Source of the DNA: Acidimicrobiales bacterium
GTDB lineage: Bacteria; Actinomycetota; Acidimicrobiia; Acidimicrobiales; SZUA-35
DNA: 64,000 nt
Assembly: GCA_965216685.1 (NCBI GenBank)
Contig: OZ244195.1
Span: forward strand, 87,780-151,779
Direction of reading: 5' to 3'
Shown: piece after piece, positions 1-43,730 of the stretch
How the letters are laid out: each line of letters starts with the position of its first letter
Numbering within the stretch: position 1 is the first letter of the stretch
The notes under the pieces: generated by a model
The model's database searches: none
Told to the model about the DNA's origin: nothing
The model's input: only the letters and a program-made list of their open reading frames with translations
Program-made: the position numbers and the translations under genes

Positions 1-753
1 CGCAACTACCAGCTGGTGGCCGACTACCTGGCCGAAGAGGTCGGGGTCGATGTGCGCTTCGAACCGGTGACCGAGTACGAGGCGGCGGTGACGGCGTTCC
101 GGGTCGGCGATCTCGATCTGGTGTGGTTCGGTGGTCTCACCGGTGTCCAGGCCCGGCTTCAGGTCGACGGAGCCGATGCCATCGTCCAACGGGACATCGA
201 CGAAACCTTCACCTCGGTGTTCGTGGCCGGGACCGACACCGACATCGAGCCGTTCGACGACGTGTCCGGTTTGAGCACCGTGGCCGGCCACACCCTCACC
301 TTCGGCTCCGAATCCAGCACCTCGGGTCGCCTGATGCCGCAGTCATTCATGAACGAGGCCGGGGTCGGTCTCGACGATCTGGACGGCGAACCGGGATTCA
401 GCGGCTCGCACGACGCCACCATCGAGTTGGTTGAGGCCGGCACCTTCGAGGTCGGGGCCCTCAACTCCCAGGTGTGGGATGCTCGGGTCGAGGCCGGCGA
501 GGTCGACCTCGACAAGGTCCAGGTCGTGTTCGAGACCCCGACCTACTACGACTATCACTGGGTGGTGCGACCGGAGTTGGGCGACGACTTGACCGCCCAG
601 GTGGTCGATGCCTTCACCTCCCTCGACCCGGACGACCCCGACGAAGCCGCCATCCTGGAGTTCTTCGGCGCCGGTTCGTTCATCGAGACCAGCAATGAGA
701 ACTACGCCAGCATCGAACAGGTCGGACGCGACATCGGAAGCATCGAGGGGTAA
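1..753 (+). CDS. phnD: Phosphonate/phosphite ABC transporter substrate-binding protein (PhnD family), 5' end cut by the window edge
   Basis: The reading frame is open from nt 1 (track ORF 16..753). It has PhnD-like motifs (DLVWFGGLTGVQA, GSESSTSGRLMP) and is followed by phnC and phnE. Confidence 0.8.
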   Translation, partial: RNYQLVADYLAEEVGVDVRFEPVTEYEAAVTAFRVGDLDLVWFGGLTGVQARLQVDGADAIVQRDIDETFTSVFVAGTDTDIEPFDDVSGLSTVAGHTLTFGSESSTSGRLMPQSFMNEAGVGLDDLDGEPGFSGSHDATIELVEAGTFEVGALNSQVWDARVEAGEVDLDKVQVVFETPTYYDYHWVVRPELGDDLTAQVVDAFTSLDPDDPDEAAILEFFGAGSFIETSNENYASIEQVGRDIGSIEG

Positions 754-783
754 CGGAGAGTCCAGGAGGGTCGACGAACAGCC

Positions 784-1593
784 ATGGATGGGTCCGTGCC
801 GGCCTCTGAAGCGGAGTCGACGGCCAGTGTCGACCTCGCCGCGGTCACCGTCCGCTACCCGGGGGCCGACCAGTTGGCGGTGGCCGACCTGTCGCTGCAG
901 GTTCGGCCCGGCGAACTGGTGGCTCTGGTCGGCCCGTCGGGCGCCGGCAAATCAACGGTGCTGTCACTGGCCGCCGGACTCACCCTTCCCACCTCGGGCC
1001 GGGTCGAGGTGCTGGGCGTCGACAGCGCCATCCTCGGACGGCGGGCCCATCGCCCGGCCCGCCGCCGGGTCGGCATCATCAGCCAGGACTTCGGCCTGGT
1101 AGGACCGTTGCGGGTGGCCAGCAACGTGGCCGCCGGGCGGGTCGGGCGCTGGTCGTGGCCCCGGGCCGCCCGCTCCCTGATCCGACCGGGTCCAGTGGAC
1201 GAGATCGTGGTCGCCCTGGACACGGTCGGCATCGCCGAGAAGCTGTGGGACCGAGCCGATCAACTCTCGGGAGGACAGCAGCAGCGTACGGCCATAGCCC
1301 GGGCACTGTTCCAGCAACCCGACCTGCTCCTGGCCGACGAACCGGTGAGTGCGCTCGACCCGTCCCGCTCCGATGCGGTCATGGCCGCGCTGGCCGCCAT
1401 GATCACAGCCGACGACGACCGGGCCATGATCGCCAGCATGCACAACGCCCCACTGGCCCTACGGCACTGCCACCGCATCGTTGCCCTCCGGGAAGGTCGA
1501 CTGCACTTCGATCTCCCAGCCGATCAGGTCGACGAGGATCGGCTGAGCGAGCTGTACCAGATCGGGCAGTCCGGCCGCCATCAGCCGGTGTGA
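784..1593 (+). CDS. phnC: Phosphonate ABC transporter ATP-binding protein
   Basis: 269-aa ORF with Walker A GPSGAGKST, ABC signature LSGGQQQR and Walker B LLLADEP. It sits between phnD and phnE. Confidence 0.85.
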   Translation: MDGSVPASEAESTASVDLAAVTVRYPGADQLAVADLSLQVRPGELVALVGPSGAGKSTVLSLAAGLTLPTSGRVEVLGVDSAILGRRAHRPARRRVGIISQDFGLVGPLRVASNVAAGRVGRWSWPRAARSLIRPGPVDEIVVALDTVGIAEKLWDRADQLSGGQQQRTAIARALFQQPDLLLADEPVSALDPSRSDAVMAALAAMITADDDRAMIASMHNAPLALRHCHRIVALREGRLHFDLPADQVDEDRLSELYQIGQSGRHQPV

Positions 1594-3263
1594 CCGCCAC
1601 CCTCGACCACCGCCCGATTGCCGTCGAGGCCAAGCCGGCGGACCGGATCCGGCGAGCCTGGGCCCTGGCCGTGGGCGCCCTGGTGGCCTGGTCGATCGTC
1701 AAGGCCGGCGTCGATCCGGGCCAACTGGTCAACGAACGGGGTTGGTCACAACTCGTTGCCTTCTTCTCGGCCATGCTCTCCCCCGATCTGAGCACCGCCA
1801 TGCTCGAACTCACCGTGCGAGAGTCGGCGGTGACGGTTGGCTACGCCCTGTTGGGCACGGCTTTGGCCGTGATCATCGGCGTGGCCTTCGGTCCACTCCT
1901 GACCGAACGGCTGTGGAGCCCACTGCACGGCCGGATGGGTCGGGGCCGTGTCGGCTGGGCTGTCGGTCGGGTCCTGCTGGTGGTTCCCCGGTCGATGCAC
2001 GAGGTGGTGTTCGGGCTCTTCCTGGTCAACATCTTGGGCCTCAACCCTCTGGTGGCGGTTCTGGCCATCGGTATTCCCTTCGGGGCGGTCACGGCCAAGG
2101 TCTTCGCCGAACTGCTCGACGAAGTTCCCCGTGACGCCGAACTGGCCATGCGGGCGGCGGGAGCGGGGCGGATCACCGCCTTGACCTTCGCCACCGTGCC
2201 CCAGGCCCTGACCGATCTGTTGTCCTACACCTTCTACCGCTTCGAGTGCAGCCTGCGCAGCGCCGCCGTGCTGGGCATCGTCGGAGCGGGCGGCCTGGGC
2301 TTCCAGCTCGCCTTGTCGTTCCAGTCGTTGCGCTACAACGAGATGTGGACGCTGCTGTGGGCCCTGATCCTGCTGTCGGGACTGGCCGATCGCTGGTCGT
2401 CGGCTGTTCGGCGGCGGCGCAACGCCATCGCCGCCGAGACCCACGTTCGTACAACGGCAGCCGACGGTCCGGATGGCGATCGACTGCTCCGGCTCAGCGC
2501 CGTCGCCCTGGCCGCTTCGTTGCCCATCGCCTACTGGCGGCTGGGGATCGACATCGGTTCGCTGTGGGACGACCGGGCCCGGCTGCTGATTGGAGAGCTT
2601 GTCTCCGATGGCTGGCCCCCGGAGATCGGCACCGGCGGTCTACGGGGCCTGATCGACGATTCGCTCGACACCATCGCCCTGGCCGTGCTGTCGCTGGCCA
2701 TGGCCTTTGTCGTCGCCTCTCCCCTGGCCTTCCTGGCCCAGCGGCCCAGCGGTCAGGCAAGCGGTCCGGGGGCCGTGGTTCGAAGCGTGGTCTCGGCCGC
2801 CATCCGGTTCGTTCTCCTCATCGGACGTTCCGTGCCGCCACCGGTGTGGGCCTTCGTGGTGGTGTTCGTGCTCTTCCCCGGGCTGTGGCCCGGGGCGGTG
2901 GCCCTGGCCGTCTACAACACCGGTGTTCTCGGTCGTCTCCAGGGTGAGGTGGTGGAGAACATGGACCAGCGGCCCGCTGACCAGCTGGCCGCCAGCGGAG
3001 CGACCGCACCGGTAGCCTGGACGGTGGCCACCGTTCCGGCCGTGGCCGGCCGGTTCGTGGCCCTCGGGTTGTACCGCTGGGAGGTGGCCATCCGGGAGAC
3101 GGTGATCGTGGGCGTGGTGGGGGCGGCCGGCCTTGGGCGCCGGCTTGATCAACAAACCGCAGCCTTCAACTACGACGGGATCGTGGCCACCGTGGTTGCC
3201 CTGTTCATGGTGACCGTGGCCGTCGACCTGGCCTCGGCCTCCATCCGCCGCTCCATCCGGTAG
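1590..3263 (+). CDS. phnE: Phosphonate ABC transporter permease, fused two-domain PhnE
   Basis: Track ORF 1155..3263 is trimmed to GTG 1590, which overlaps the phnC stop (GTGA). The protein is polytopic with two repeated permease halves. The 1155-1589 extension overlaps phnC and is Arg/Pro-rich junk. Confidence 0.8.
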   Translation: MTATLDHRPIAVEAKPADRIRRAWALAVGALVAWSIVKAGVDPGQLVNERGWSQLVAFFSAMLSPDLSTAMLELTVRESAVTVGYALLGTALAVIIGVAFGPLLTERLWSPLHGRMGRGRVGWAVGRVLLVVPRSMHEVVFGLFLVNILGLNPLVAVLAIGIPFGAVTAKVFAELLDEVPRDAELAMRAAGAGRITALTFATVPQALTDLLSYTFYRFECSLRSAAVLGIVGAGGLGFQLALSFQSLRYNEMWTLLWALILLSGLADRWSSAVRRRRNAIAAETHVRTTAADGPDGDRLLRLSAVALAASLPIAYWRLGIDIGSLWDDRARLLIGELVSDGWPPEIGTGGLRGLIDDSLDTIALAVLSLAMAFVVASPLAFLAQRPSGQASGPGAVVRSVVSAAIRFVLLIGRSVPPPVWAFVVVFVLFPGLWPGAVALAVYNTGVLGRLQGEVVENMDQRPADQLAASGATAPVAWTVATVPAVAGRFVALGLYRWEVAIRETVIVGVVGAAGLGRRLDQQTAAFNYDGIVATVVALFMVTVAVDLASASIRRSIR

Positions 3264-3271
3264 AGGGTTGA

Positions 3272-4327
3272 TCAGCGACCTTCGACCACGGCGACAAGCG
3301 CCGCCTGCTCGTTCGCCGGTTCGGTGATGGGAACCAGCTGGTTGGTCCGCCGCTGCAACTCGTCCAGCAGTGCCGGATCGGATTCGAGGGCCGTCAACAG
3401 CCGGGCCATGGCCTCGTCATCGCCCACCGGAACGAGGCCGGGGTGGTCGTCGCCCAACAGCCCGGTGTTGCCCTCGATACGGGTTCCGACGACCGGCAGG
3501 CCTATGGCGATGGCTTCGGTCACCACGTTGGCCCCACCCTCGGCCCGGGACGTGCAGGCCAGCAGGTGGCCTGATGCCAGCAGCTCCAGCGCGCTGATCC
3601 GGTGGAGTTCGCCGTGCCATCGGTACCGGGGGTTGACCCGCTGCTCCCCGTCGGCCGCCTCGGCCCAGGCCGGGTCGAGGGCTCGACCGGCGTGATGCAC
3701 GCTGACCCTGCTGTCCGGACTCATCCGGCGAGCGGCCCGGGCGGTCAGCAACGGGTCCTTGATGTCCCGCAGGTGGGCCAGCACCACCACCCGCAGCTCA
3801 CCGGCAGCCGGGCGCCGGGTGGGGCGGGGCCGGGCCACCGACTGGTGGATGACCGTCGTCTTGGCCCCCCAGCCCGGTCGAAACCGCTCCACCCGGGCCA
3901 GGGCCGCCCGCTGGAGCACGATCAGCCCGTCGGCCGCCTCGGTTGACGCCATGGCCGCGGCGTTGCCGGGCATGTCCTGGTAGAGGTCGGTGCCGCTCAA
4001 GCCGACGATCAGGCGGCGGTCGGGGTGGTGGCGACGCCACCAGCCCACCACCGGAGCCGAGCGACGGGCGTGGAGAGCAACCAGAACATCGGCTGACCGC
4101 AACCGGGTGGCGTGGTAGTCGCCGATCTCGTCGGACTGTTCGTCGATGGCGAGGAGGGCCACCTCGTGGTCGGCCGCCTGCAGCAGAGCGGCCCATCGGT
4201 TGGCGGTGACGTCGTTGCCCGAACCGGCTGTGGGCCGGATGGGGGCGGCGATGACCACCGAGCGGTTCCGGTTCACGGGTTGGATCGTGGGGTCACCGGG
4301 CGCAGGTTCGGAATCCGGCGTAGACAT
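3272..4327 (-). CDS. senB: GT-B fold glycosyltransferase, candidate selenosugar synthase SenB
   Basis: Track ORF 3272..4423 is trimmed to ATG 4327; GTG 4276 is an alternative start. It has a GT-B-like N-terminus (VVIAAPIRPTAGSGNDVTANRW) and a C-terminal EGGANVVTEAIAIGLPVV motif. It lies immediately downstream of, and overlaps, the EgtB-like gene, and selD is adjacent. Confidence 0.65.
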   Translation of the reverse strand: MSTPDSEPAPGDPTIQPVNRNRSVVIAAPIRPTAGSGNDVTANRWAALLQAADHEVALLAIDEQSDEIGDYHATRLRSADVLVALHARRSAPVVGWWRRHHPDRRLIVGLSGTDLYQDMPGNAAAMASTEAADGLIVLQRAALARVERFRPGWGAKTTVIHQSVARPRPTRRPAAGELRVVVLAHLRDIKDPLLTARAARRMSPDSRVSVHHAGRALDPAWAEAADGEQRVNPRYRWHGELHRISALELLASGHLLACTSRAEGGANVVTEAIAIGLPVVGTRIEGNTGLLGDDHPGLVPVGDDEAMARLLTALESDPALLDELQRRTNQLVPITEPANEQAALVAVVEGR

Positions 4328-5591
4328 CGCGCCGGTCGGGGGTGAAGTAGTTCCGGTAGGTCGAGCGGACGTAGCGGTGGCGGGTGGCCCACGAGCCACC
4401 CCGCAGGACCTTGCGGGTACCAAACCACGGTTCGGAGTTGTCGCGGTAGGCGTCCGGTTCGAAGTGGGGGTACGGGCCGAAGGTGGAACTGGTCCACTCC
4501 CACACGTTGCCGATCAGCTGACGGTGGCCCCAGGGGCCGTCACCGGCCCCGAAGGCCCCGACCGGAACGGTGTGACCGGTTCGAGCGTCGAGCGCCGCCT
4601 CCGACGGCTGGGGGTCGCGGCCGCCCCAGGGGAACCACGGCAGGCGTTCACCGGTCGGGGTGGTGGTGGCCGCCGCCTCCCATTCAGCCTCGGTGGGCAG
4701 CCGGCGACCGGCCCAAATGCAGTAGGCCTCGGCTTCCCACCAGTTGACGTGGATCATGGGATGGTCGTCGGTGTTGCTGATCGGCCCCCAGACCGAGCCG
4801 ATTCGCCGCTCCCAACCGTCGGCCCCTCGACGCCAGTAGGCTGGTTGGCCGGATTCGGATTCCCGTCGCCAGGCCAGACCGTCCGGTGACCACAGTCGGT
4901 CGTCGTCGTAGCCGCCGTCGTCGACGAACTCGGCGAATTGGCCGATGGTGACCGGGGTGACGGCCATGTCGAAGCGGTCGATCTCGACCGGGTGGGCCCA
5001 CTTCTCGTTGTCCATCACGAACGGTTGGCGACGGGACGCCCCCAACACCACCCGACCTCCGCCGACCGAGCGGTCGCCCGATATCGGTTCACCCATCACC
5101 GGCGCAGAGGCCGAACGGCCCGGGAGGCGGCCCCAGTCGAGAGTCTGCCGGGTGTAGGTCAGGGCCTCGCAGTGGGCGTCGTGGTGCATGACGGCGTAGG
5201 CCACGTAGTAGGCGGTGGAGTCGAGACCTCTATCATCGCCCAGCACCTCGACCAGACCGTCGGCCACCCGGCGCACGTAGTCGATGGTGGTGGCCGAATC
5301 GGGGTAGTCGATCTGCCAGCGGGTCTTGTGGGCCACCAGAGCCGAGTCGTACCGTTCGTCGACGTGGTCCAGCAGCGGTTGGCGGCCGTGCAACTGGCGG
5401 AGCACGAACCACTCGGCGAACCAGCCGACGTGGGCCAGCTCCCAGATCGGCGGGTTCACGATGGGAAGGTAGGGGCCCATCCAGCGGGGATCGTCGCGCT
5501 GGAAGTCGGCCACCGAACCGATCAGGTGATCTGTGGCGTCGCCCACCCAGTCGGCCAGATCATCGTGGTCAACCCAGGTGGACAATGACAT
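4293..5591 (-). CDS. senA: EgtB-like DinB + FGE-sulfatase domain C-S/C-Se bond-forming enzyme, candidate selenoneine synthase SenA
   Basis: 432-aa ORF starting at ATG 5591. The N-terminus is DinB-like (WELAHVGWFAEWF) and the C-terminus is an FGE-sulfatase domain (LRGGSWATRHRYVRSTYRNY). The context with selD and a glycosyltransferase favours SenA over EgtB. Confidence 0.7.
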   Translation of the reverse strand: MSLSTWVDHDDLADWVGDATDHLIGSVADFQRDDPRWMGPYLPIVNPPIWELAHVGWFAEWFVLRQLHGRQPLLDHVDERYDSALVAHKTRWQIDYPDSATTIDYVRRVADGLVEVLGDDRGLDSTAYYVAYAVMHHDAHCEALTYTRQTLDWGRLPGRSASAPVMGEPISGDRSVGGGRVVLGASRRQPFVMDNEKWAHPVEIDRFDMAVTPVTIGQFAEFVDDGGYDDDRLWSPDGLAWRRESESGQPAYWRRGADGWERRIGSVWGPISNTDDHPMIHVNWWEAEAYCIWAGRRLPTEAEWEAAATTTPTGERLPWFPWGGRDPQPSEAALDARTGHTVPVGAFGAGDGPWGHRQLIGNVWEWTSSTFGPYPHFEPDAYRDNSEPWFGTRKVLRGGSWATRHRYVRSTYRNYFTPDRRDVYAGFRTCAR

Positions 5592-5632
5592 GACAAAACC
5601 GTAGCAGTGGTCGTCTCGGTAGTCTGAAAGCT

Positions 5633-6673
5633 GTGACCAACGAACGGCCCAACCGCCTGACCCAATTCAGCCACGGCGCCGGTTGAGGCTGCAAGCTCGC
5701 TCCGGGCGAGCTGGCGCACGTGGTGCGCGATCTGCAGGCCGACACCCCTCCCGAGTTGCTGGTGGGAACCGCCACCGGCGATGACGCCGCGGTCTGGAAG
5801 CTGGACGACGACCGGGCCATCATCTCCACCGCCGACTTCATCACCCCGGTGGTCGACGACGCCCGCACCTGGGGCCGGGTGGCCGCCGCCAACAGCGTCT
5901 CCGACGTCTACGCCATGGGTGGTCGACCTCTGTTCGCCCTCAACCTGGTGGGCTGGAACACCGATGCCCTCCCCACCTCTTTGCTGGGCGAACTCCTGGC
6001 CGGCGGTCAAGACATCGCCCGGGCCGGGGGGTTCGCCATCGTCGGTGGCCACACCATCGATGACCCCGAGCCGAAGTACGGGATGTCGGTCACCGGTGAG
6101 GTTCACCCCGACCGGATCCTGACCAACGCCGGCCTGACCGCGGGCCAGGACCTGATCCTGACCAAGCCGTTGGGAGTGGGGGTCATCACCACGGCCATCA
6201 AGGCCGATACCGCTCCGGCCGAGGTGGCTGAGGCTGCCATTGCCTCGATGACGATGTTGAACGACGTGGCCTCCCGGGTGGCACTGACGGCCGGAGCCAC
6301 CGGTTGTACCGACGTGACCGGCTTCGGGTTGCTGGGTCACCTCGGTCGTATGGCCGTCGAGTCCGGGGTTCGGGTCACTGTTGAGTTCGAAGCCATTCCC
6401 ATGCTGCCCGGAGCCATTGATCTGGCCGCTCAGGGGATGATGCCCGGCGGCAGCCGACGCAACCTGGCCTGGGGGGGCGAACTGCTCGATCCCGGGTCCC
6501 ACGATGAACTCCACCAGTTGATGATCGCCGATGCCCAGACGTCGGGTGGGCTGGTGTTCGGCGTCGAGCCCGGCCAGACCGGGTCGGTGCTGTCCCAGCT
6601 GGCCGACAGCGGCCACCGGGCGGCCCACATCGGGTCGACGACGGCCGGCACCCCCGGCTTTCGTCTCACCTGA
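5633..6673 (+). CDS. selD: Selenide, water dikinase (selenophosphate synthetase SelD/SenC) with an in-frame UGA selenocysteine
   Basis: Track ORF 5720..6673 continues upstream in the same frame through TGA 5684-5686. From GTG 5633 it reads MTNERPNRLTQFSHGAG-U-GCKLAPGEL. This aligns with the E. coli SelD N-terminus (LTQYSHGAGCGCK), placing TGA at the catalytic Cys17 position. A GAAAG Shine-Dalgarno-like sequence sits 3 nt upstream of the GTG. The AIR-synthase-like body includes DDAAVW and GGHTIDD. Confidence 0.88.
5684..5686 (+). other. UGA selenocysteine recoding codon in selD
   Basis: ggt TGA ggc tgc aag lies in frame with both the upstream GTG 5633 and the downstream SelD body. Confidence 0.85.
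5687..5740 (+). promoter_or_regulatory. Candidate SECIS region (stem-loops directly 3' of the UGA)
   Basis: Hairpin 1 is AGCTCGC-TCCGG-GCGAGCT (5694-5712). Hairpin 2 is GCGCAC-GTG-GTGCGC (5714-5728). A possible closing helix pairs GGCTGCA (5687-5693) with TGCAGGCC (5733-5740) with one bulge. I did not compute a folding energy. Confidence 0.55.
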
Positions 6674-6991
6674 TCGGTCCTGGGGTGTCGGCCGTCCCGT
6701 CCGCCTTCCACCGGCCCGGCCAGGATGCGCTTTGGCGGCTCAGCGACCCCCCAGATGGGTCTGTGAACCGCCAAAGCGTCTTCTACCGGGTCGTCGAGCA
6801 GCCAAACTGTGGGGCAGGGATGTCACCCAACCACCATGGCGTCGCCCACCCGGGCAGGCACCATCCTACGGAGTCGTTCATCTCAGACCGGTCGACCACC
6901 ATTAGTAAAGGATGCGACTATTAGGCTATGGTGGTCGTCGGTCGAGAGTCGGCCGGTCGACAAGCGAGACAGCCCGCCGGAGGTAGCAGCC

Positions 6992-7435
6992 ATGCGACGA
7001 ATTCTGTACCGACTTGGAGTGGCCGTGGTCATCATGACCGTGCTGACGCTCCCCTCCCCCGTGTCGGCCGATGATGCCGGCCGCCCGCTGGCCGTCGATC
7101 TGTCGTCGGCCAACGAGGTGCCGCCGAGCGGCACGACAGGATCAGGCTCGGCTGATGTCACCCTCAACCAGGGTCAGGGCCGGGTTTGCATCGATCTGAC
7201 CGCCCAGGGCCTGGCTGGAACCGTACTGGCCGGCCACATCCATTCCGGGCCGGCCGGGGTCAACGGAGGCGTGGTGGTCAATCTCGGCGTGAACAGCGCC
7301 GACTTCCAGGCCTGCATCGACGGTGTCGACAAGGACCTGATCAAGGATCTTCGCCAGAATCCGCAGAACTACTACGTGAACATCCACACCTCGGCCGTTC
7401 CGTCAGGCGAGATCCGGGGCCAACTGTCGAAGTAG
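6992..7435 (+). CDS. Secreted CHRD domain-containing protein
   Basis: Track ORF 6809..7435 is trimmed to ATG 6992, which is preceded by GGAGG. It has a signal-like N-terminus (MRRILYRLGVAVVIMTVLTL). CHRD hallmarks are present (NEVPP, AGHIHSGPAGVNGGVV, YYVNIHT, GEIRGQL). Confidence 0.8.
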   Translation: MRRILYRLGVAVVIMTVLTLPSPVSADDAGRPLAVDLSSANEVPPSGTTGSGSADVTLNQGQGRVCIDLTAQGLAGTVLAGHIHSGPAGVNGGVVVNLGVNSADFQACIDGVDKDLIKDLRQNPQNYYVNIHTSAVPSGEIRGQLSK

Positions 7436-7475
7436 ACAACCGGGGAAACTTCACGCCCGAGTAGGGTGGCTCGAC

Positions 7476-8738
7476 ATGATTGAGCCGTCCGACCACTCTG
7501 TCGACACCGAATTCGACCTGGTGACCAAGGGAGGGCATCCCGACTTTCTCGACCTGCCGTGGGGTGAACCGCTGGAGCGCTGGGATCACCCCCGGCTGGT
7601 CAAGATGGCCCACGGCATCAGCCGCCACATCGTGCGCTTCGTCCGTTACGACGACCGGGTCTATGCCCTCAAGGAGACCGAGCCGGAGGTGGCCCGGTCG
7701 GAGTTCGACATTCTGCGCCGGATGCGTGACCACCATCTGCCCACGGTCGAAGCCATTGGGGTGGTGACCGGCCTCGGTCCCGACGGTCGGGCCATGCTGA
7801 TCACCCGCTACCTCGACTTCTCGCTCCCCTACTGGTACATCATCGGCCGCAACGAGTACGGGCTGGCCGACAACCTGATGAACGCCGGCGTCGTTCTCCT
7901 GGTCCGTCTCCATCTCGACGGCATCTTCTGGGGCGACTGCTCACTGTCCAACATCTTGTTCCGGCGTGACGCCGGAGCGATGATGGCCTACCTGGTCGAC
8001 GCCGAGACGTCGGATTGGCAGACCACGATCAGCGACGAACTCCGTCGTTACGATCTGCAGATCGCCCAGGAGAACATGGCGGGCGGCATCCTGGATCTGC
8101 AGGCCCAGGGCCGGGTGGACGAGGACGTCGATCCGTTCGCCATGGCCGACGAACTCCGTGCCCGTTACGACGAGCTGTGGGATGAACTGACTCACACCGA
8201 TGAGATTCCCTTCGCTGAACGGTGGCGAATCGATCGTCGGGTTCGACGCATCAACGATCTCGGCTTCGACGTCGAGGAACTCTCCATCAGCCGGGACGGC
8301 ACCAGGTTGACGGTGAAGCCGACACTCATCGAGGAAGGCCACCATTCCCGGGCCCTTCGCCAACGGACCGGTCTCGATGTCCAGGAGAATCAGGCCCGCC
8401 GGCTGCTGGCCGACATCGCCGGCTACCAGGCATGGCTCGAACTGCAGTCGACGAAACCGGTGCCGGCTGCGGTGGCGGCGGCCAAGTGGCTGGCTGACGT
8501 GTACGAGCCGGTGGTGGAGTCGGTGCCGGATGAGTTGGCCCAGCGGCTGGAACAACCGGAGATCTTTCACCAGGTCCTCGAGCACCGCTACTACCTGGCC
8601 GAGCGCCGAGGCCGGGAGGTCTCCAACCAGGAGGCCTTGACCGACTACCTCGAGTCGATCCTGGTCGAGCGCCCCACCGAACGCCAGCTCCTGGTTGGTG
8701 ACCCCCAAGTGCCGTCGCCCCCGGAAGATGTCGAGTAG
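7476..8738 (+). CDS. DUF4032 domain protein with an N-terminal lipopolysaccharide-kinase-like fold
   Basis: 420-aa ORF. The N-terminus (DLPWGEPLERW...GISRHIVRFVRYDDRVYALKET) is typical of the actinobacterial DUF4032 family. Confidence 0.7.
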   Translation: MIEPSDHSVDTEFDLVTKGGHPDFLDLPWGEPLERWDHPRLVKMAHGISRHIVRFVRYDDRVYALKETEPEVARSEFDILRRMRDHHLPTVEAIGVVTGLGPDGRAMLITRYLDFSLPYWYIIGRNEYGLADNLMNAGVVLLVRLHLDGIFWGDCSLSNILFRRDAGAMMAYLVDAETSDWQTTISDELRRYDLQIAQENMAGGILDLQAQGRVDEDVDPFAMADELRARYDELWDELTHTDEIPFAERWRIDRRVRRINDLGFDVEELSISRDGTRLTVKPTLIEEGHHSRALRQRTGLDVQENQARRLLADIAGYQAWLELQSTKPVPAAVAAAKWLADVYEPVVESVPDELAQRLEQPEIFHQVLEHRYYLAERRGREVSNQEALTDYLESILVERPTERQLLVGDPQVPSPPEDVE

Positions 8739-10898: not shown

Positions 10899-10970
10899 TG
10901 CGGACGTAGTTCAACGGCTAGAACCTCAGCCTTCCAAGCTGATGATGTGGGTTCGATTCCCATCGTCCGC
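10899..10970 (+). tRNA. tRNA-Gly (anticodon UCC)
   Basis: Hand-folded cloverleaf: acceptor GCGGACG/CGTCCGC, D arm GTTC..GAAC, anticodon arm TCAGC-CTTCCAA-GCTGA, T arm GTGGG-TTCGATT-CCCAT. CCA is not encoded. Confidence 0.85.
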
Positions 10971-11280
10971 TCAATTTTGTCCGATCGACACCAGCCGTCT
11001 CGCCGGCGTGAGCCCGGATAGATCGACGAATCATGCGAAGTCGGCCACCCGAGCCTACGTTCTCGTCGACGCAGGTGGTGCCCTGTCGGTAGCAGGCCGT
11101 TGCCCGAGCCCGGTGCCATCGCCGCGGATCGCTACCCGGAGTTCGCGATCCTCCTCGCTGGCTTCGACCGCCACCCACCTGGAGGGTCCTTCGGCCCTGT
11201 TGGTTGGTCGCCGTCGGATCCACAATGGCACCATCAGCGCCCTCGGAGGGCGTGAAGAACACCACGAAAGCGAGCCGGCA

Positions 11281-35874: not shown

Positions 35875-35912
35875 CACCTGGAGTCTGGGTCAAGCGGATC
35901 AAGCTGAACTCG

Positions 35913-35986
35913 CACCCCCGACAGGAGTCGAACCTGCGACCTAGTCATTAGAAGTGACTTGCTCTGTCCAGCTGAGCTACGGGGGC
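35913..35986 (-). tRNA. tRNA-Arg (anticodon UCU)
   Basis: The reverse complement folds as GCCCCCG-TA-GCTC..GAGC-A-AGTCA-CTTCTAA-TGACT-AGGTC-GCAGG-TTCGACT-CCTGT-CGGGGGT-G. The 1:72 pair is G:U in my fold. Confidence 0.8.
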
Positions 35987-36131
35987 AGAACAAGCCTAGC
36001 GCCTCGGCAACGACCACGACCGCCTGATTTTCGGCCCGCAGTCGGCGGTCCGGGAGGTGTTGAAGTTCGAAAAACCCATCGCCGATCGGCCGAAATCGAG
36101 CTAGCATTGCAGGGCTTCACCATGAAGACGT

Positions 36132-36209
36132 GGTGGCCGTAGCTCAGTTGGTTAGAGCGCCAGGTTGTGATCCTGGATGTCGGGGGTTCGAATCCCCTCG
36201 GTCACCCCA
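36132..36209 (+). tRNA. tRNA-His (anticodon GUG) with encoded G-1 and CCA
   Basis: The fold is G(-1)-GTGGCCG-TA-GCTC..GAGC-G-CCAGG-TTGTGAT-CCTGG-ATGTC-GGGGG-TTCGAAT-CCCCT-CGGTCAC-C-CCA. Confidence 0.85.
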
Positions 36210-36259
36210 TGCGAATCGATCTGAGAGGGCCAACCCCTGCCGGATCATCGCAGCAGCAA

Positions 36260-36332
36260 GCGCCTCTAGCTCAATTGGCAGAGCATCGGACTCTTAATCC
36301 GCAGGTTCTGGGTTCAAGTCCCAGGGGGCGTA
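36260..36332 (+). tRNA. tRNA-Lys (anticodon CUU)
   Basis: The fold is GCGCCTC-TA-GCTC..GAGC-A-TCGGA-CTCTTAA-TCCGC-AGGTT-CTGGG-TTCAAGT-CCCAG-GGGGCGT-A. The 1:72 pair is G:U in my fold. Confidence 0.8.
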
Positions 36333-36417
36333 CGTGTGAGTTTGCTCGTTCTGGGGTTCTGGGGGGTCGCAATCGACCCCCCAGAACCCCAGATCGGCGT
36401 TGTGGACGGGCCCGGGC

Positions 36418-39733: not shown

Positions 39734-42286
39734 CTACAACCGGGGATCGACCGGCTCACTCTCCAGGGCCAACACCGCGAAGACGCACTCATGGACCCGG
39801 AACAGGTGCTCCCGGGCCACGAACCGGTCGAGCGCCTCGATGCCCAGTGCGAACTCCCGTCGGGCCAGGGAACGTTTGTGGCGAAGCGAACGGCGCCGAA
39901 GCCGTTCCAGGTTCTCAGGGGCCAGATATTCAGGGCCGTAGATGATCCGCAGGTACTCCCGTCCCCGGCATTTGACACCGGGCAGGACCAGGCCCTTCTC
40001 CCCCACCACGATCGGCTCGGCCGGCTTCACCACCATCCCTTCGCCACCGGCCGAGGTCATCTCAACCCACCATTCGGTGGCCGCTTCCACCTCGTCGTCG
40101 ACGGAGAGATCGACGAAGCGCCGATCGGTGGCCCGCAACACCTTGGGGTTGGCGTCGACCATGGCGTCGATGACGCCGAGGTGCCAGCGGTGGGGACGGC
40201 GGGCCAACACCTCGCCTTCGGCGGCCAGAATCTGGAAGGGGGCGATCTCCACCCCGTCGGCTCCCTCGACGTCCCAGCAGTAGCGACGATAGGCGTCGAT
40301 GTAGGAGCTGACGCTTTCGTGCCGATCCGACGTTCTCGTGGCCACAGCCTCGAGGTCCTCCCCTCCCACCCCCCGGCCCATGGCCGCCGCCAGTGCCGAC
40401 CGGGCGGCCGACAACATGGCCGACCCGGCGGCCCCGGTGGCGGCGTACTGGCGCTCGAGCAGCTCCCGGGCCTTGGCCGACCAGGGCAGGATCTCAGCGT
40501 CGACCACCAACCAGTCGGTAGCCAACTGCTCCCACAAGCCGGTGGTCTCGGCCGCCGACCGCAGGCTGTCGAGCAGCGATGCCGTCACCGGCCCGTCGGG
40601 GTCGAAGAACGGGCGTCCGGTGCGGGTCACGATCACCCCGGCCGACTCATTGCTGATACCGAACCGGGCCTGGGCGGCATCGGCGTCCCGGGCCAACACG
40701 AAAACCGCCCGCGACCCCATGTGTTTCTCCTGGCACACCACATTGGCCACGTTGGACCGGCGGAACTCACTGAAAGCCTCGTCCGGGTGTTCCAGGTAGT
40801 CCGGCCGGCTGCTGGTGGCCACCGGGGCCATCGTCGGGGGCAGATGAACCAACCACCGGGGATCGGTGGCGAAGCGGCTCATCACCTCCAGAGCGGCGCT
40901 GGAGCGTTCGGCCCCGATGGTCAACGCCCCGGCCAGGCCGGTCTCCACCCGCTGACGGCCCAGCACATCGCCCACGTCAAGCAGCAGCGGTGGCCGTCCC
41001 GAGGGCCGCTCATCGGCCAACGGACGGATCGGCTCGTAGTACTCACGCTCGGCCGGAATCGACACCAGCTCCCTCTCCGGCCACCGCAGGGCGGTCAACG
41101 AACCGCCGAACACCGCCCCGGTGTCGAGGCAGATGGTGTTGTTCACCCAGTCGGCCGACGGTACCGGGGTGTGGCCGTAGACCACGGTGGCCTTGCCCCG
41201 GTACTCATCGGCCCACGGATAACGAACCGGCAGGCCGAACTCGTCGGTCTCGCCGTCGGTGTCGCCGTACATGGCCAGGCTGCGAACCCGGCCGGAGGTC
41301 CGACCGTGATACCGCTCGGGCAGGCCGGCGTGGGCCACCACCAGCCGGCCGTCGTCGAGAACGTAGTGACTGATCAGTCCATCGATGAACTCGGCCACCT
41401 TGGTTCGGTAGTCGCCAGGGCGGGCATCGATCTGGGCCAGCGACTCGGCCAGCCCGTGGCTGACCTTGACCTTGCGGCCGGCCAGCGCCCGGCCCAGCTT
41501 GTTCTCGTGGTTGCCGACGATGCACAACGCAGTGCCGGCCTCGACCATGGCCATGGCCACGTCCAGAACCTCGGGCGTACCGGGGCCACGGTCGACCAGG
41601 TCGCCGAGAAAGATGACGCGACGGCCGTCGGGATGGCTGATGGGCTCGGCGGCCACGTCGTATCCCAGCCCGGTCAGCAACGCCACCAGCTCGACGTTGC
41701 AGCCGTGGACGTCGCCGATGATGTCGAAGGGACCGTGGTCGTCCCGCCGGTCGTTCCACAGTCTGGTTCGCTCAATCCGGGCGGTGTCGAGTTGGGCTTC
41801 GGTGTCGAAGCGGACAACCCGGCGAATGCGTTCCCGGCTCATCCCTCGCATGCTGCGGCGGAGGTTACGGTGCTGGCGGCGTATGGCGTGGTCGGGGGTC
41901 CGCCGGTCGGCTCGGGTGGCGTTACGTTCCAGGCAGACCGACAGCGGCAGGTCGAAAACGATGGCGGTGAGCAGCACGTCCCACTTGCGGGCCAGGGCGA
42001 CGATCGGTTTACGGTCCTCGGGCTTGATGTTGGTGGCGTCGACCACGGTGAGGCGGCCCACTTGGAGCCGCTTGTCGACGATGTCGTGGAGCAGGGCGAA
42101 GGCGGCGGCGGTCACCGACTGATCGGTTTCGTCGTCGCCCACCAGGGCTCGGCAGCGGTCGCTGGACACGACTTCGGTGTCGGAGAAGTGACGGTGGGCG
42201 AAGGTCGACTTTCCCGAACCGGAGGCCCCGCACAGCATGACCAGGCCCAGTTCTGGTAGTTCGATGGTGGCGTTGAGCTCGGTCAT
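39734..42286 (-). CDS. pnkP: Polynucleotide kinase-phosphatase (kinase + metallophosphoesterase + ligase-like adenylyltransferase)
   Basis: Track ORF 39734..42436 is trimmed to ATG 42286 (MTELNATIELPELG), which overlaps the hen1 stop (ATGA). It has a P-loop (GASGSGKST), phosphoesterase motifs (GDVHGC, GDLVDRG, GNHE) and a ligase-like KHMGS motif. Confidence 0.85.
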   Translation of the reverse strand: MTELNATIELPELGLVMLCGASGSGKSTFAHRHFSDTEVVSSDRCRALVGDDETDQSVTAAAFALLHDIVDKRLQVGRLTVVDATNIKPEDRKPIVALARKWDVLLTAIVFDLPLSVCLERNATRADRRTPDHAIRRQHRNLRRSMRGMSRERIRRVVRFDTEAQLDTARIERTRLWNDRRDDHGPFDIIGDVHGCNVELVALLTGLGYDVAAEPISHPDGRRVIFLGDLVDRGPGTPEVLDVAMAMVEAGTALCIVGNHENKLGRALAGRKVKVSHGLAESLAQIDARPGDYRTKVAEFIDGLISHYVLDDGRLVVAHAGLPERYHGRTSGRVRSLAMYGDTDGETDEFGLPVRYPWADEYRGKATVVYGHTPVPSADWVNNTICLDTGAVFGGSLTALRWPERELVSIPAEREYYEPIRPLADERPSGRPPLLLDVGDVLGRQRVETGLAGALTIGAERSSAALEVMSRFATDPRWLVHLPPTMAPVATSSRPDYLEHPDEAFSEFRRSNVANVVCQEKHMGSRAVFVLARDADAAQARFGISNESAGVIVTRTGRPFFDPDGPVTASLLDSLRSAAETTGLWEQLATDWLVVDAEILPWSAKARELLERQYAATGAAGSAMLSAARSALAAAMGRGVGGEDLEAVATRTSDRHESVSSYIDAYRRYCWDVEGADGVEIAPFQILAAEGEVLARRPHRWHLGVIDAMVDANPKVLRATDRRFVDLSVDDEVEAATEWWVEMTSAGGEGMVVKPAEPIVVGEKGLVLPGVKCRGREYLRIIYGPEYLAPENLERLRRRSLRHKRSLARREFALGIEALDRFVAREHLFRVHECVFAVLALESEPVDPRL

Positions 42287-43689
42287 GGCGCCCCCTCGAT
42301 GCCCCGCCGGAAGACGGCCATCTGGGTTGGGGTTCCGGTGGCGGGATCGTCGGGTCCGATGCCGTCGAAGCGAACAGAGTAGCCGTACTCCTGGCCGACG
42401 GATTCGGCCCATGACCGGAACTCGGCCCGGGTCCACTCGAAGCGGTGGTCACGATGGCGCAGCCGGTTCGGGTCGAGGCCGTCGAAGTTCACGTTGTACT
42501 CCCGGTTGGGGGTGGTCATGATGACGGTCGTCGGGCCGGCGTGACCGAAGAGGACCCGGGCGAACACGTCGAGGCGTTCGCCGTCGATGTGTTCGACCAC
42601 TTCGACCACACAGGCCACGTCGAATCCGGTGAGACGGTCATCGGTGTAGGTGAGCGCCCCCTGGAGAAGCTCGATCCGCTCCCGCCGCCGTTGCGACATC
42701 TGGTCGAGCCGTAACCGACGCTCGGCTCGTTCCAACGCTCCGATGGACACGTCGACGCCGACCAGGTGGGCCACCGAGGGCTCGGCCAGTAGTCGCTGGA
42801 GCAGGCGTCCCTCACCGCATCCCAGGTCGAGCACCCGGCCGCCACCGGCCGCCGCCACCTCGGTGGTGACCGCTTGCAGGCGTTGTTCGTTGAGGCTGAG
42901 CGGCTTCTCGACTTCGGCCTCGGCCCGGTCGTTGGCCTCATCGGCGGCGTCCGAGTCGTCATCCTCCTCGGCCAAGCGGGCCAGGGCCTGACGGGCCAGG
43001 CCGCCGTACCGCAGGTAACGACGGGCGATCAGCTCGTTCTCGGGGTGATCACCCAGCCAGGCCGCCCCCCGCCGTAGCAGCTTGTCGACCTCGGCCGATC
43101 CAATCCAGTAGTGTTTCCGGTCATCCAGCACCGGGAGTAGGACAAAGAGGTGCTCAAGGGCCCGTTGCACCGTCAGACGAGCCCGCAAGGTCAGCTGGAG
43201 GTAGCGGCTGTCGCCCCAGTCGGGGAACTGGGGATCGAGCGGCAGCGGCACCGCCGAGATCTCATAACCCAGCGGCTTGAACAGCCGGTGCAGAACATCT
43301 TGACCGCCCCTGACAGGAACGACCGGTAGTTCGATCTCCAGGTCGAGCGGGGTGGCCACCAACTCGGGTCGGGGTTCACATTTGCCGGCCAGGGCCGAGC
43401 CGTACACCTGGCGCAGGGCGCCACTGAGGATCGACGAGGCGGCGTAGGGCCGGTCGTTCACATAGGGTTCCAGGTTGTGGGCCGGGGCCCCTTTGCGACG
43501 GCGGCTGAGGGCCACCGGGTCGATCTCCACCAGCAGGGTGGCGGTGCAACGGTCGGGCGTGGCCTCGGGATAGAACACGTGGGCCGTGCCGTGACCGACG
43601 CTGACGGTCCGCACCCGATCCGGGTGTTTGTGCAGCAGGTAGCCCAGGTCGGTGGCGTCGGGGGTGGTCGAGGTGATGGACAGCAGCAT
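42283..43689 (-). CDS. hen1: 3'-terminal RNA ribose 2'-O-methyltransferase Hen1
   Basis: 468-aa ORF with a Hen1-type N-terminal domain (MLLSITSTTPDATDLGYLLHKHPDR) and a C-terminal SAM methyltransferase motif (VLDLGCGEGRLL). Confidence 0.85.
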   Translation of the reverse strand: MLLSITSTTPDATDLGYLLHKHPDRVRTVSVGHGTAHVFYPEATPDRCTATLLVEIDPVALSRRRKGAPAHNLEPYVNDRPYAASSILSGALRQVYGSALAGKCEPRPELVATPLDLEIELPVVPVRGGQDVLHRLFKPLGYEISAVPLPLDPQFPDWGDSRYLQLTLRARLTVQRALEHLFVLLPVLDDRKHYWIGSAEVDKLLRRGAAWLGDHPENELIARRYLRYGGLARQALARLAEEDDDSDAADEANDRAEAEVEKPLSLNEQRLQAVTTEVAAAGGGRVLDLGCGEGRLLQRLLAEPSVAHLVGVDVSIGALERAERRLRLDQMSQRRRERIELLQGALTYTDDRLTGFDVACVVEVVEHIDGERLDVFARVLFGHAGPTTVIMTTPNREYNVNFDGLDPNRLRHRDHRFEWTRAEFRSWAESVGQEYGYSVRFDGIGPDDPATGTPTQMAVFRRGIEGAP

Positions 43690-43730
43690 GAGCTATCCAT
43701 TCAACCCCATCGCGGCCCTCCACTTCGGAG

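Follow-up and report, generated by a model that had tools for sequence, protein, structure and literature searches.

A probable selenocysteine-type selenophosphate synthetase gene beside the selenoneine biosynthesis genes of an Acidimicrobiales bacterium

The window analysed, a 64-kb stretch of genomic DNA of an Acidimicrobiales bacterium, contains the gene selD (senC), encoding selenophosphate synthetase, next to genes of selenoneine biosynthesis. Comparative evidence supports its assignment to the Sec-type SelD, in which UGA occupies the catalytic Cys/Sec position and is directly followed by a SECIS element. The best explanation as a whole, by which SelD would be translated from GTG 5633 with selenocysteine (Sec) as residue 18 by means of a two-hairpin signal and would feed selenoneine synthesis, has in our estimation a probability of about 0.9. 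The case is well supported but ordinary, since Sec-containing SelD has long been known and represents a textbook family.

Composition of the selenoneine cluster

The following features were found upstream of selD:
1..3263, forward strand: ABC importer of three parts, putative selenate transporter
16-753, forward strand: ABC substrate-binding protein, cut off by the window start
784-1593, forward strand: ABC ATPase, PhnC-like
about 1590 to 3263, forward strand: ABC double permease
3272..4327, reverse strand: senB, selenosugar synthase (TIGR04348)
4293..5591, reverse strand: senA, selenoneine synthase (EgtB-like), divergent from selD
5592..5632: spacer of 41 nt between the divergent start codons of senA and selD

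SenA is recognized by the model NF041186 with 442.2 bits (cut-off 420) and scores 288.9 bits with the EgtB model, below the cut-off of 360; its Pfam domains are DinB_2 and FGE-sulfatase. SenB matches TIGR04348 with 307.9 bits (cut-off 300); the longest ORF opens at TTG 4423, and the match begins at its residue 56. The start of senB is uncertain, ATG 4327 or GTG 4276. The substrate-binding protein of the ABC importer scores 308.5 bits with TIGR04553 (cut-off 250), a putative selenate ABC transporter subunit, and the double permease scores 317 bits with PhnE. TIGR04553 is a hypothetical equivalog, so selenate as the substrate of the importer is only putative. The designation of the region as a selenometabolite cluster, made in the initial annotation from the sequence, thus holds, the NCBIfam cut-offs being exceeded by SenA, by SenB and by the putative selenate ABC transporter. 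No EgtD-type domain was found among the part of the window ORFs that was scanned. A scan of positions 5300-6900 for sigma-70 promoters and intrinsic terminators revealed none; candidate TANNNT boxes were noted by eye for the spacer between senA and selD.

Reading frame of selD and the in-frame TGA codon

The gene and the parts of its 5' region that bear on decoding are as follows:
5633..6673, forward strand: selD/senC, selenophosphate synthetase, 346 codons, predicted Sec at codon 18
5654..5683, forward strand: ten codons RLTQFSHGAG under protein-level purifying selection
5684..5686, forward strand: in-frame TGA, predicted Sec codon, aligned with Cys17 of Escherichia coli SelD, loop SHGAG-U-GCK
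5694..5712, forward strand: hairpin 1, stem of 8 pairs, one of them U-G, with loop CCG, spanning the codons KLAPGEL
5714..5728, forward strand: hairpin 2, 6 pairs, loop GUG

The ORF list contains selD only as 5720..6673. The initial annotation had proposed that this entry is truncated and that the lost segment carries a TGA at the catalytic Cys/Sec position of the glycine-rich loop of SelD, and both proposals agree with the data. Translation from 5573 onward shows the frame to be open from GTG 5633, where the earliest start codon following the upstream stop is located, and the single interruption between 5633 and 6673 is TGA 5684-5686. The N-terminus read through this codon is VTNERPNRLTQFSHGAG*GCKLAPGEL, the asterisk marking the TGA. 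With C placed at codon 18, the protein scores 376.1 bits with TIGR00476 (cut-off 125) and 365 bits with NF002098 (cut-off 299), contains the Pfam domains AIRS (PF00586) and AIRS_C (PF02769), and aligns with E. coli SelD (3u0o) across residues 4-337 with an E-value of 7.5e-81. The loop SHGAG-U-GCK of the window aligns column for column with SHGAGCGCK of the E. coli enzyme, whereby TGA falls on Cys17 and Lys20 is kept. Both Cys17 and Lys20 are essential in E. coli SelD.

Of the 79 related loci with the loop motif, 71 keep TGA at codon 18 and the other eight have TGC or TGT; the relatives span Acidimicrobiales, Gemmatimonadales and Anaeromyxobacter. Contigs of four independent metagenome runs differ from the window by no letter over 5500-5900, which excludes an assembly error as the source of the TGA. 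TGA also terminates 21 of the 30 other confident ORFs of the window, including senA and senB, and selD itself ends in TGA; it is therefore not a reassigned codon. A crude scan of the window for in-frame TGA codons revealed no other selenoprotein gene and only three weak candidates, two of which (63899 and 26770) are stops ending ORFs of the coding-signal list.

Across 72 genes, Leu, Thr, Ser, His and both Gly of the segment 5654-5683 are invariant amino acids. Three to six synonymous codons are used at five of these six positions, and His uses its only two. The ten codons before the UGA thus vary mostly at synonymous sites, which indicates that they are translated and that the start of translation is located upstream of the UGA.

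Hairpins downstream of the UGA

The two stem-loops had been noted beforehand at 5694-5712 and 5714-5728 as compatible with a bacterial SECIS (bSECIS), together with a possible closing helix, 5687-5693 with 5733-5740. Both stem-loops were found at these positions and are conserved with compensatory changes in the alignment of 72 TGA-bearing homologues, whereas the closing helix, present in the minimum-energy fold of the window, is unsupported, since only 55.7% of its cells pair across the homologues; it also lies outside the RNAalifold consensus and was rejected.

Hairpin 1 has an energy of -12.6 kcal/mol (z -3.6); 91.7% of its cells pair (71 distinct sequences), and changes on both sides were found in five of its eight pairs. 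Its compensatory series run, for example, from GCC-CCC-GGC through GGC-CCC-GCC to CGC-CCG-GCG, and from CTC..GAG to ATC..GAT. For hairpin 2 (-9.7 kcal/mol, z -2.4), 94.8% of the cells pair and both-side changes occur in three of six pairs: the third base of the Ala codon, a synonymous position (GCG/GCC/GCT), changes together with the opening base of the Arg/Gly/Ser codon (CGC/GGC/AGC), and homologues have either CAC..GTG or CAG..CTG. Two extra pairs extend hairpin 2 in relatives, at the columns corresponding to 5712/5730 and 5713/5729; hairpin 2 of the window is without them, having G.G at 5713/5729. RNAalifold recovers both hairpins independently and extends the stem of hairpin 2.

The tested structure pairs in 80.6% of cells, compared with 29-45% when the partners are slid. 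Its covariation score is 0.187, compared with at most 0.072 for slid partners and 0.093 for shuffled alignments, and was reached by none of 500 shuffles. Part of this covariation involves amino-acid changes, so that protein-level and RNA-level constraint are not fully separable in it. The 62-nt stretch as a whole is GC-rich and, taken from the window alone, gives z -1.47, with 14 of 200 shuffles folding as well; accordingly, it is conservation and covariation across the 72 homologues, and not the fold of the window alone, that place the structure above chance. Cys-type homologues are without both hairpins, forming on average 4.6 of the eight pairs of hairpin 1. A search against Rfam, at the gathering threshold and with E-values up to 10 around the site, revealed no SECIS family, only tRNAs and chance matches.

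The published bSECIS consensus (PMC13188914) comprises an apical loop of 3-9 nt with an upper stem of 4-16 bp, G within the first two positions of the loop (G or U mostly comes next), a distance of 16-37 nt from UGA to the apical loop, and a minimum free energy no higher than -7.5 kcal/mol; some bSECIS elements do not conform to this model. Hairpin 2 agrees with the consensus in all four respects, its energy included: the loop is of 3 nt, the stem of 6 bp (8 bp in relatives), the loop reads GUN in 72 of 72 sequences, and 33 nt (5687-5719) separate it from the UGA. Hairpin 1 agrees in loop and stem size (3 nt, 8 bp) and in energy; its loop reads CCN in 72 of 72 sequences, without the G, and begins 15 nt after the UGA, just outside the range. 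The earlier statement on bSECIS compatibility therefore stands for hairpin 2 and fails for hairpin 1, in loop G and spacing. Judged by these criteria, hairpin 2 is most likely the SelB-binding element.

Selenocysteine machinery and gene linkage in relatives

No tRNA-Sec, selA or selB was found in the 64-kb window. The initial annotation had placed the complete system elsewhere in the genome, and data on relatives suggest that the source genome would indeed encode selA, selB and selC. The relative L015 carries an operon selD(TGA)-selA-selB, the SelD of which is 76% identical; selA-selB operons were also found in further relatives detected with the L015 SelA, several of them named Ilumatobacter or Ilumatobacteraceae by their source, such operons being common in Ilumatobacteraceae, and tRNA-Sec is present in two Acidimicrobiia loci (L058, L059). 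No tRNA-Sec was found in L015 or near selA-selB in L081-L083. Three long contigs with selA-selB operons, obtained via SelA homologues, did not match any contig carrying Sec-type selD in record name and length. When the metagenome runs holding the window (about 10 million contigs) were compared with selD-selA-selB of a relative, only short conserved pieces belonging to several organisms, and not assignable to the genome of the window, were obtained. RNA runs were looked for and none was found.

The gene selD is located beside senA, senB and the transporter genes in eight genomes of several subclades; linkage to senA and senB was seen in seven related loci. Two gene orders are represented, that of the window and that of L031 and L033 (selD, ABC genes, senB, senA). 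This ABC importer adjoins the Sec-type selD in L001, L003, L004, L005, L018, L019, L021, L031 and L033. For most Sec-type selD loci of the clade, no sen gene lies within 10 kb, and a neighbour-joining tree, calculated without support values, shows sen-linked and unlinked selD genes intermixed.

Alternative explanations

If the UGA were a true stop, the product would begin at GTG 5720 or the gene would be a pseudogene, in either case a SelD without the glycine-rich catalytic loop. We regard this as extremely improbable: the mechanically predicted ORF does begin at 5720 and the Sec machinery is absent from the window, but TGA is kept at the exact codon in 71 related loci of three phyla, the ten codons before it vary at synonymous sites while being strongly selected at the protein level, and the upstream segment holds the loop SHGAG-x-x-C-K aligned with Cys17 and Lys20 of E. 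coli. Hardly better are the chances of a UGA decoded as something other than Sec, either as a reassigned codon or by near-cognate read-through inserting Cys or Trp. In favour of it, other species have an active SelD with Cys in this place, judging by the homologues with TGC or TGT; against this stand the use of TGA as a terminator in the window (21 of 30 confident ORFs, and the stops of selD, senA and senB), the covarying structure right after the UGA, missing in Cys-type genes, and the close relative with selA and selB beside a TGA-type selD.

Two further alternatives accept Sec at codon 18. One holds that the Sec-type selD is a housekeeping gene of the Sec pathway only, that its adjacency to the sen genes is incidental and that a separate Cys-type SenC is encoded elsewhere. 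The patchy linkage, with most Sec-type selD loci of the clade being without sen genes within 10 kb, and the interleaving in the tree are in line with this, as is the extent of the evidence, which covers the 64-kb window of the genome. We nevertheless consider it unlikely, given that selD, senA, senB and the transporter occur together in eight genomes in two gene orders, that the sen cluster is defined by just such a three-gene linkage (bioRxiv 10.1101/2022.04.13.486033), and that the window contains no second selD. The other concerns the signal: hairpin 1, and not hairpin 2, could be the SelB-binding SECIS, or both could form one composite element. It is a possibility of some weight, although not the one we favour, as hairpin 1 surpasses hairpin 2 in stability (-12.6 kcal/mol, z -3.6), equals it in conservation with five covarying pairs, and sits where E. 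coli-type SECIS elements begin; some bSECIS elements, besides, deviate from the consensus (PMC13188914). The distance from the UGA to its loop, however, is 15 nt, short of the range of 16-37 nt, and its 5' arm, 7 nt after the UGA, would probably be inside the ribosome at decoding.

Proposed mechanism and significance

According to the preferred reading, with Sec18 and hairpin 2 as the likely SelB site, translation would start at GTG 5633 and the catalytic residue 18 would be Sec, encoded by UGA 5684-5686. SelB-GTP carrying Sec-tRNA(Sec), bound to an element within the next ~45 nt, would deliver Sec in competition with RF2. The recoding element would consist of the two adjacent hairpins, SelB presumably binding hairpin 2 (5714-5728, GUG). 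Since hairpin 1 begins 7 nt after the UGA, the ribosome would have to open it at decoding; it is probably melted once the UGA reaches the A site. The 3' arm of hairpin 1, when freed, could in relatives add two pairs to hairpin 2.

Selenophosphate made by SelD would be supplied to SenB for selenosugar formation and to SenA for selenoneine formation, with the putative selenate importer encoded alongside. Because an orthologue is located in the selD-selA-selB operon of a relative, this SelD is probably the general SelD of the cell, which would also serve Sec synthesis beside that of selenoneine. As SelD would be needed for its own Sec, its synthesis, and therefore selenoneine output, would hang on a prior supply of selenium. 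The positive feedback of selenium on SelD suggested in the initial annotation is thus reasonable, but it is a standard inference for every Sec-type SelD and is not new here.

More tentatively, a single Sec-type SelD may serve both Sec and selenoneine synthesis in this Acidimicrobiales lineage under translational gating by selenium, and the two-hairpin element may be a distinct class of bSECIS that is confined to this SelD clade. Actinomycetota, Gemmatimonadota and Myxococcota all share the conserved element; in the model of such a class, the ribosome would open hairpin 1, and the freed bases would lengthen the SelB-binding hairpin 2.

Two uses of selenium that are usually treated apart would thereby be joined, as the enzyme feeding selenoneine synthesis would itself require the Sec machinery and selenium first. 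A steep dependence of selenoneine output on selenium supply is predicted for these abundant environmental actinobacteria, and heterologous expression of such clusters is expected to fail unless the UGA is replaced with a codon for Cys or the host is given a SelB/SECIS pair that is compatible. With compensatory changes in both hairpins, the alignment of 72 natural variants represents a ready data set on SelB recognition in this group. In annotation, the start of selD should be set at 5633 and codon 18 marked as a Sec exception; otherwise, ORF finders drop the catalytic loop of SelD and may mark the enzyme as truncated, and this holds as well for no fewer than 71 related loci in metagenome-assembled genomes.

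Comparison with known systems

Sec-type SelD/SPS2 are represented by SelD of Haemophilus influenzae, SelD of Methanococcus and mammalian SEPHS2. The gene of the window is similar to them in family, in the position of Sec in the N-terminal loop, in Cys/Sec polymorphism, in the structure directly after the UGA and in the logic of self-dependence; it differs in its physical location inside a sen cluster with a putative selenate importer and in having two adjacent, separately covarying hairpins instead of one stem-loop. Sec-containing SelD is the second most widespread selenoprotein family of prokaryotes, with the motif UxxK (PMC13188914), which U-G-C-K of the window fits, and Sec-type SelD has been reported in Actinomarina of the class Acidimicrobiia (bioRxiv 10.64898/2026.04.03.716425).

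The sen cluster was defined by the linkage senA-senB-senC (Kayrouz et al.; bioRxiv 10.1101/2022.04.13.486033). The cluster of the window resembles that of Variovorax paradoxus and other bacteria in the location of SenA and SenB genes next to a selD homologue, and a subset of the described clusters includes, as here, a putative selenate transporter. SenC of V. paradoxus, presumably of the Cys type, could be over-produced in E. coli like any ordinary protein. Whereas selD overlaps senB in that cluster type, here it is divergent from senA-senB, and it shares an orthologous group with the selD genes linked to selA-selB. The literature that was searched contained no discussion of a Sec-type SenC.

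Compared with the bSECIS model (bSECISearch; PMC13188914), hairpin 2 is alike in the GU start of the loop, the stem of 6-8 bp, the 33-nt spacing and the energy, whereas the extra conserved hairpin between the UGA and the SECIS-like hairpin is absent from the model and distinguishes the element described here.

Gene selD and its reading frame

The window, with a G+C content of 65.7%, contains a gene of selenophosphate synthetase, selD, beside sen genes and an ABC importer:

1-3263, + strand: ABC importer; binding protein TIGR04553, 308.5 bits (cut-off 250)
3272-~4327, - strand: SenB; TIGR04348, 308 bits (cut-off 300)
4293-5591, - strand: SenA; NF041186, 442 bits (cut-off 420)
5720-6673, + strand: selD as listed mechanically in the ORF list

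The initial annotation had extended the frame of selD back to GTG 5633 through a single TGA, and translation begun at 5573 bore this out: GTG 5633 is the first start codon past the upstream stop, and the only interruption is TGA 5684-5686, giving the peptide VTNERPNRLTQFSHGAG*GCKLAPGEL. The 346-residue protein, scored with Cys put at the TGA position, matched the SelD equivalog TIGR00476 with 376 bits (cut-off 125) and NF002098 with 365 bits (cut-off 299), and was aligned to E. coli SelD (PDB 3u0o; residues 4-337, E 7.5e-81). TGA corresponds to Cys17, with the G-C-K after it on Gly18-Cys19-Lys20, in agreement with the proposed catalytic Cys/Sec position of the loop. A product begun at 5720 is predicted to be without the whole catalytic loop.

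The runs containing the window sequence are metagenomes; contigs of four independent runs show zero differing letters at 5500-5900, and the TGA is therefore real. Reassignment of the codon is ruled out, since TGA is the normal stop in 21 of the 30 confident ORFs of the window, including selD, senA and senB. Across the homologues, the encoded amino acid never varies at six of the ten codons 5' of the TGA, and these are written with six synonymous codons for Leu, five for Ser, four for Thr, four and three for the two Gly, and both codons for His; the segment is therefore translated in the selD frame, which excludes both a pseudogene and translation beginning at 5720 as in the ORF list.

Comparative analysis of the TGA codon

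A scan of GTDB with the read-through protein as query, one genome per species, yielded 80 loci, the nearest SelD relatives belonging to Acidimicrobiales/Ilumatobacteraceae MAGs (identity up to 85%). The loop motif was locatable in 79 loci, with no match in L079. Exactly this codon is TGA in 71 of the 79 (Sec-type) and TGC or TGT in 8 (Cys-type). Genes of TGA-bearing selD were found in Acidimicrobiales, other Actinomycetota, Gemmatimonadales and Anaeromyxobacter.

Of the 72 Sec-type genes (window 5681-5687 and the same columns in 71 loci), 55 have GGT as the codon before UGA, despite the preference of these genomes for G or C in the third position, and 70 have G as the base after UGA; such a context may affect recoding versus termination. 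In the four metagenome runs, contig depth climbs from 14-44 to 95-471 at 5666-5700, where the assembler's contigs break, and contigs that differ further upstream merge in at 5653-5657. A stretch of ~30 nt around the Sec codon is therefore identical in several organisms present in the same samples.

RNA element downstream of the TGA

The 62 nt after UGA in the window sequence alone (-30.2 kcal/mol, z -1.47) are not unusual for their composition, while the two hairpins folded singly reached -12.6 kcal/mol (z -3.6) for hairpin 1 and -9.7 kcal/mol (z -2.4) for hairpin 2. When 72 TGA-type genes were aligned without gaps and three helices were scored together, 80.6% of cells paired, versus 29-45% after the partners had been shifted by 1-3 columns; the covariation score was 0.187, versus at most 0.072 shifted and 0.093 shuffled, and was reached by 0 of 500 shuffles. 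This alignment is regarded as the decisive evidence for the predicted RNA element.

Table. Pairing of the proposed helices in 72 TGA-type selD genes
Helix; cells paired; pairs with both-side changes
Hairpin 1 (5694-5712); 91.7%; 5 of 8
Hairpin 2 (5714-5728); 94.8%; 3 of 6
Closing helix (5687-5693 with 5733-5740); 55.7%; 2 of 7

Both hairpins, recovered independently in the RNAalifold consensus, stand as proposed; the closing helix is missing from this consensus and was rejected. RNAalifold adds two pairs to hairpin 2 (columns 29/47 and 30/46; 13 double changes), the window having G.G at columns 30/46. In hairpin 1, GCC-CCC-GGC (Ala-Pro-Gly) is replaced by GGC-CCC-GCC (Gly-Pro-Ala) or CGC-CCG-GCG (Arg-Pro-Ala), and a synonymous change in the third base of Ala (GCG, GCC, GCT) in hairpin 2 is matched by the first base four codons on (CGC, GGC, AGC). 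Other compensatory exchanges in the element are CTC..GAG to ATC..GAT and CAC..GTG versus CAG..CTG. All 64 Sec-type genes with Leu at the Leu codon of hairpin 1 write it as CTC, versus CTG in 4 of 8 Cys-type genes; the eight Cys-type homologues form on average only 4.6 of 8 pairs of hairpin 1 and 3.5 of 7 of hairpin 2. No family matching the element was found in Rfam.

The bSECIS model requires a loop of 3-9 nt on a stem of 4-16 bp, a G at loop position 1 or 2 with G or U as the usual next base, a UGA-to-loop spacing of 16-37 nt and an MFE of at most -7.5 kcal/mol (PMC13188914). Hairpin 2 fits this model on all four counts (6-8 bp, spacing 33 nt, -9.7 kcal/mol; loop GUN in 72 of 72 sequences), and hairpin 1 departs from it on two (loop CCN in 72 of 72; spacing 15 nt), so SelB probably binds hairpin 2. 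Hairpin 1 seems to be a conserved accessory element: its 5' arm begins 7 nt after UGA, so a ribosome at UGA would open it at decoding, and in relatives its released 3' arm might lengthen hairpin 2.

The sen cluster and neighbouring genes

The model matches identify the cluster as the sen cluster of Kayrouz et al. (bioRxiv 10.1101/2022.04.13.486033), with selD as the predicted SenC; the SenA ORF scores under the cut-off of the EgtB model. The binding-protein model is labelled 'putative selenate ABC transporter substrate-binding protein'. Sec-type selD, senA, senB and the transporter occur together in L001, L003, L004, L018, L021, L031 and L033, arranged in either of two orders. The transporter adjoins Sec-type selD without sen genes in L005 (6626-9814) and L019 (6643-9885), so its association seems to be with selD itself. 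According to the review PMC13188914, a specific transporter with high affinity for selenium is yet to be identified in prokaryotes.

In a neighbour-joining tree of the 80 SelD sequences, without support values, sen-linked selD is interleaved with unlinked ones and with that of L015; taken at face value, this suggests one orthologous selD, probably a housekeeping gene, lying beside sen genes in some genomes.

The senA ATG (5591, - strand) and selD GTG (5633) are separated by 41 nt (5592-5632), with a TANNNT box 6-7 nt 5' of each start (TAGTCT 5620-5625, +; TACGGT 5603-5598, -), which would fit two leaderless divergent transcripts. No match to the sigma-70 consensus was found in this interval. 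Directly 3' of selD (6809-8738, + strand), genes of a CHRD-domain protein and a DUF4032/Kdo-kinase-like protein are present, with no NCBIfam match; they adjoin selD nowhere among the 80 related loci, and a connection with the cluster is therefore improbable.

Genes of selenocysteine incorporation

In the 64-kb window, tRNA-Sec was not found, nor were selA and selB (tblastn, Acidimicrobiia SelA and SelB queries). In L015, a TGA-type selD (SelD 76% identical) heads a selD-selA-selB operon, and the acidimicrobiial loci L058 and L059 contain tRNA-Sec, selD, selB and selA together. Because relatives carry these genes, their absence from the window's genome appears very unlikely. The closest homologues of L015 SelA number hundreds (~77-80% identity), several source-named Ilumatobacter or Ilumatobacteraceae, and the three long MAG contigs examined carry selA-selB operons.

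L059 (731-5093) and L058 (2851-4601) are compact loci with tRNA-Sec directly 5' of selD and with selB and selA converging on it from the opposite strand; the Sec machinery is retained although SelD is Cys-type. In the MAG loci L081, L082 and L083 (6001-9017), selA overlaps selB by 4 nt, and the pair is followed on the opposite strand by NfeD-family membrane protein genes; small MT0933-like antitoxin-family genes precede them in L082 and L083. No tRNA-Sec was found within 6 kb of selA-selB in the three.

Other genes of the window

A bacterial RNA repair pair is encoded at 39734-43692 (- strand): Pnkp, a kinase-phosphatase-ligase (PNKP_ligase, 565 bits), then Hen1 (Hen1_L and methyltransferase domain). 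tRNA-Gly(tcc) is located at 10900-10972, 4 kb 3' of selD, and an Arg(tct)-His-Lys(ctt) group at 35912-36333. Similar tRNA groups (Arg-His-Arg-Lys-Leu) are found within a few kb of selD in loci of Anaeromyxobacter and of some actinobacteria (L063, L065, L067, L075), which may be a coincidence.

Comparison with known systems

The case for a Sec-type SelD is very well supported, and the finding helps the annotation and heterologous expression of such clusters; the two-hairpin recoding element is modestly interesting. No discussion of a Sec-type SenC was found in the literature searched. Neither the sen cluster nor the model of the putative selenate transporter is new, and the positive feedback through selenium is the usual argument for any Sec-type SelD. 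SelD counts among the experimentally verified selenoproteins, with the motif UxxK, and among prokaryotic selenoprotein families it is described as the second most widespread (PMC13188914). The Cys/Sec polymorphism of selD was originally described in 1996, as referenced in bioRxiv 10.64898/2026.04.03.716425, where the Sec form is reported in Actinomarina, a member of the same class, Acidimicrobiia, as the window organism.
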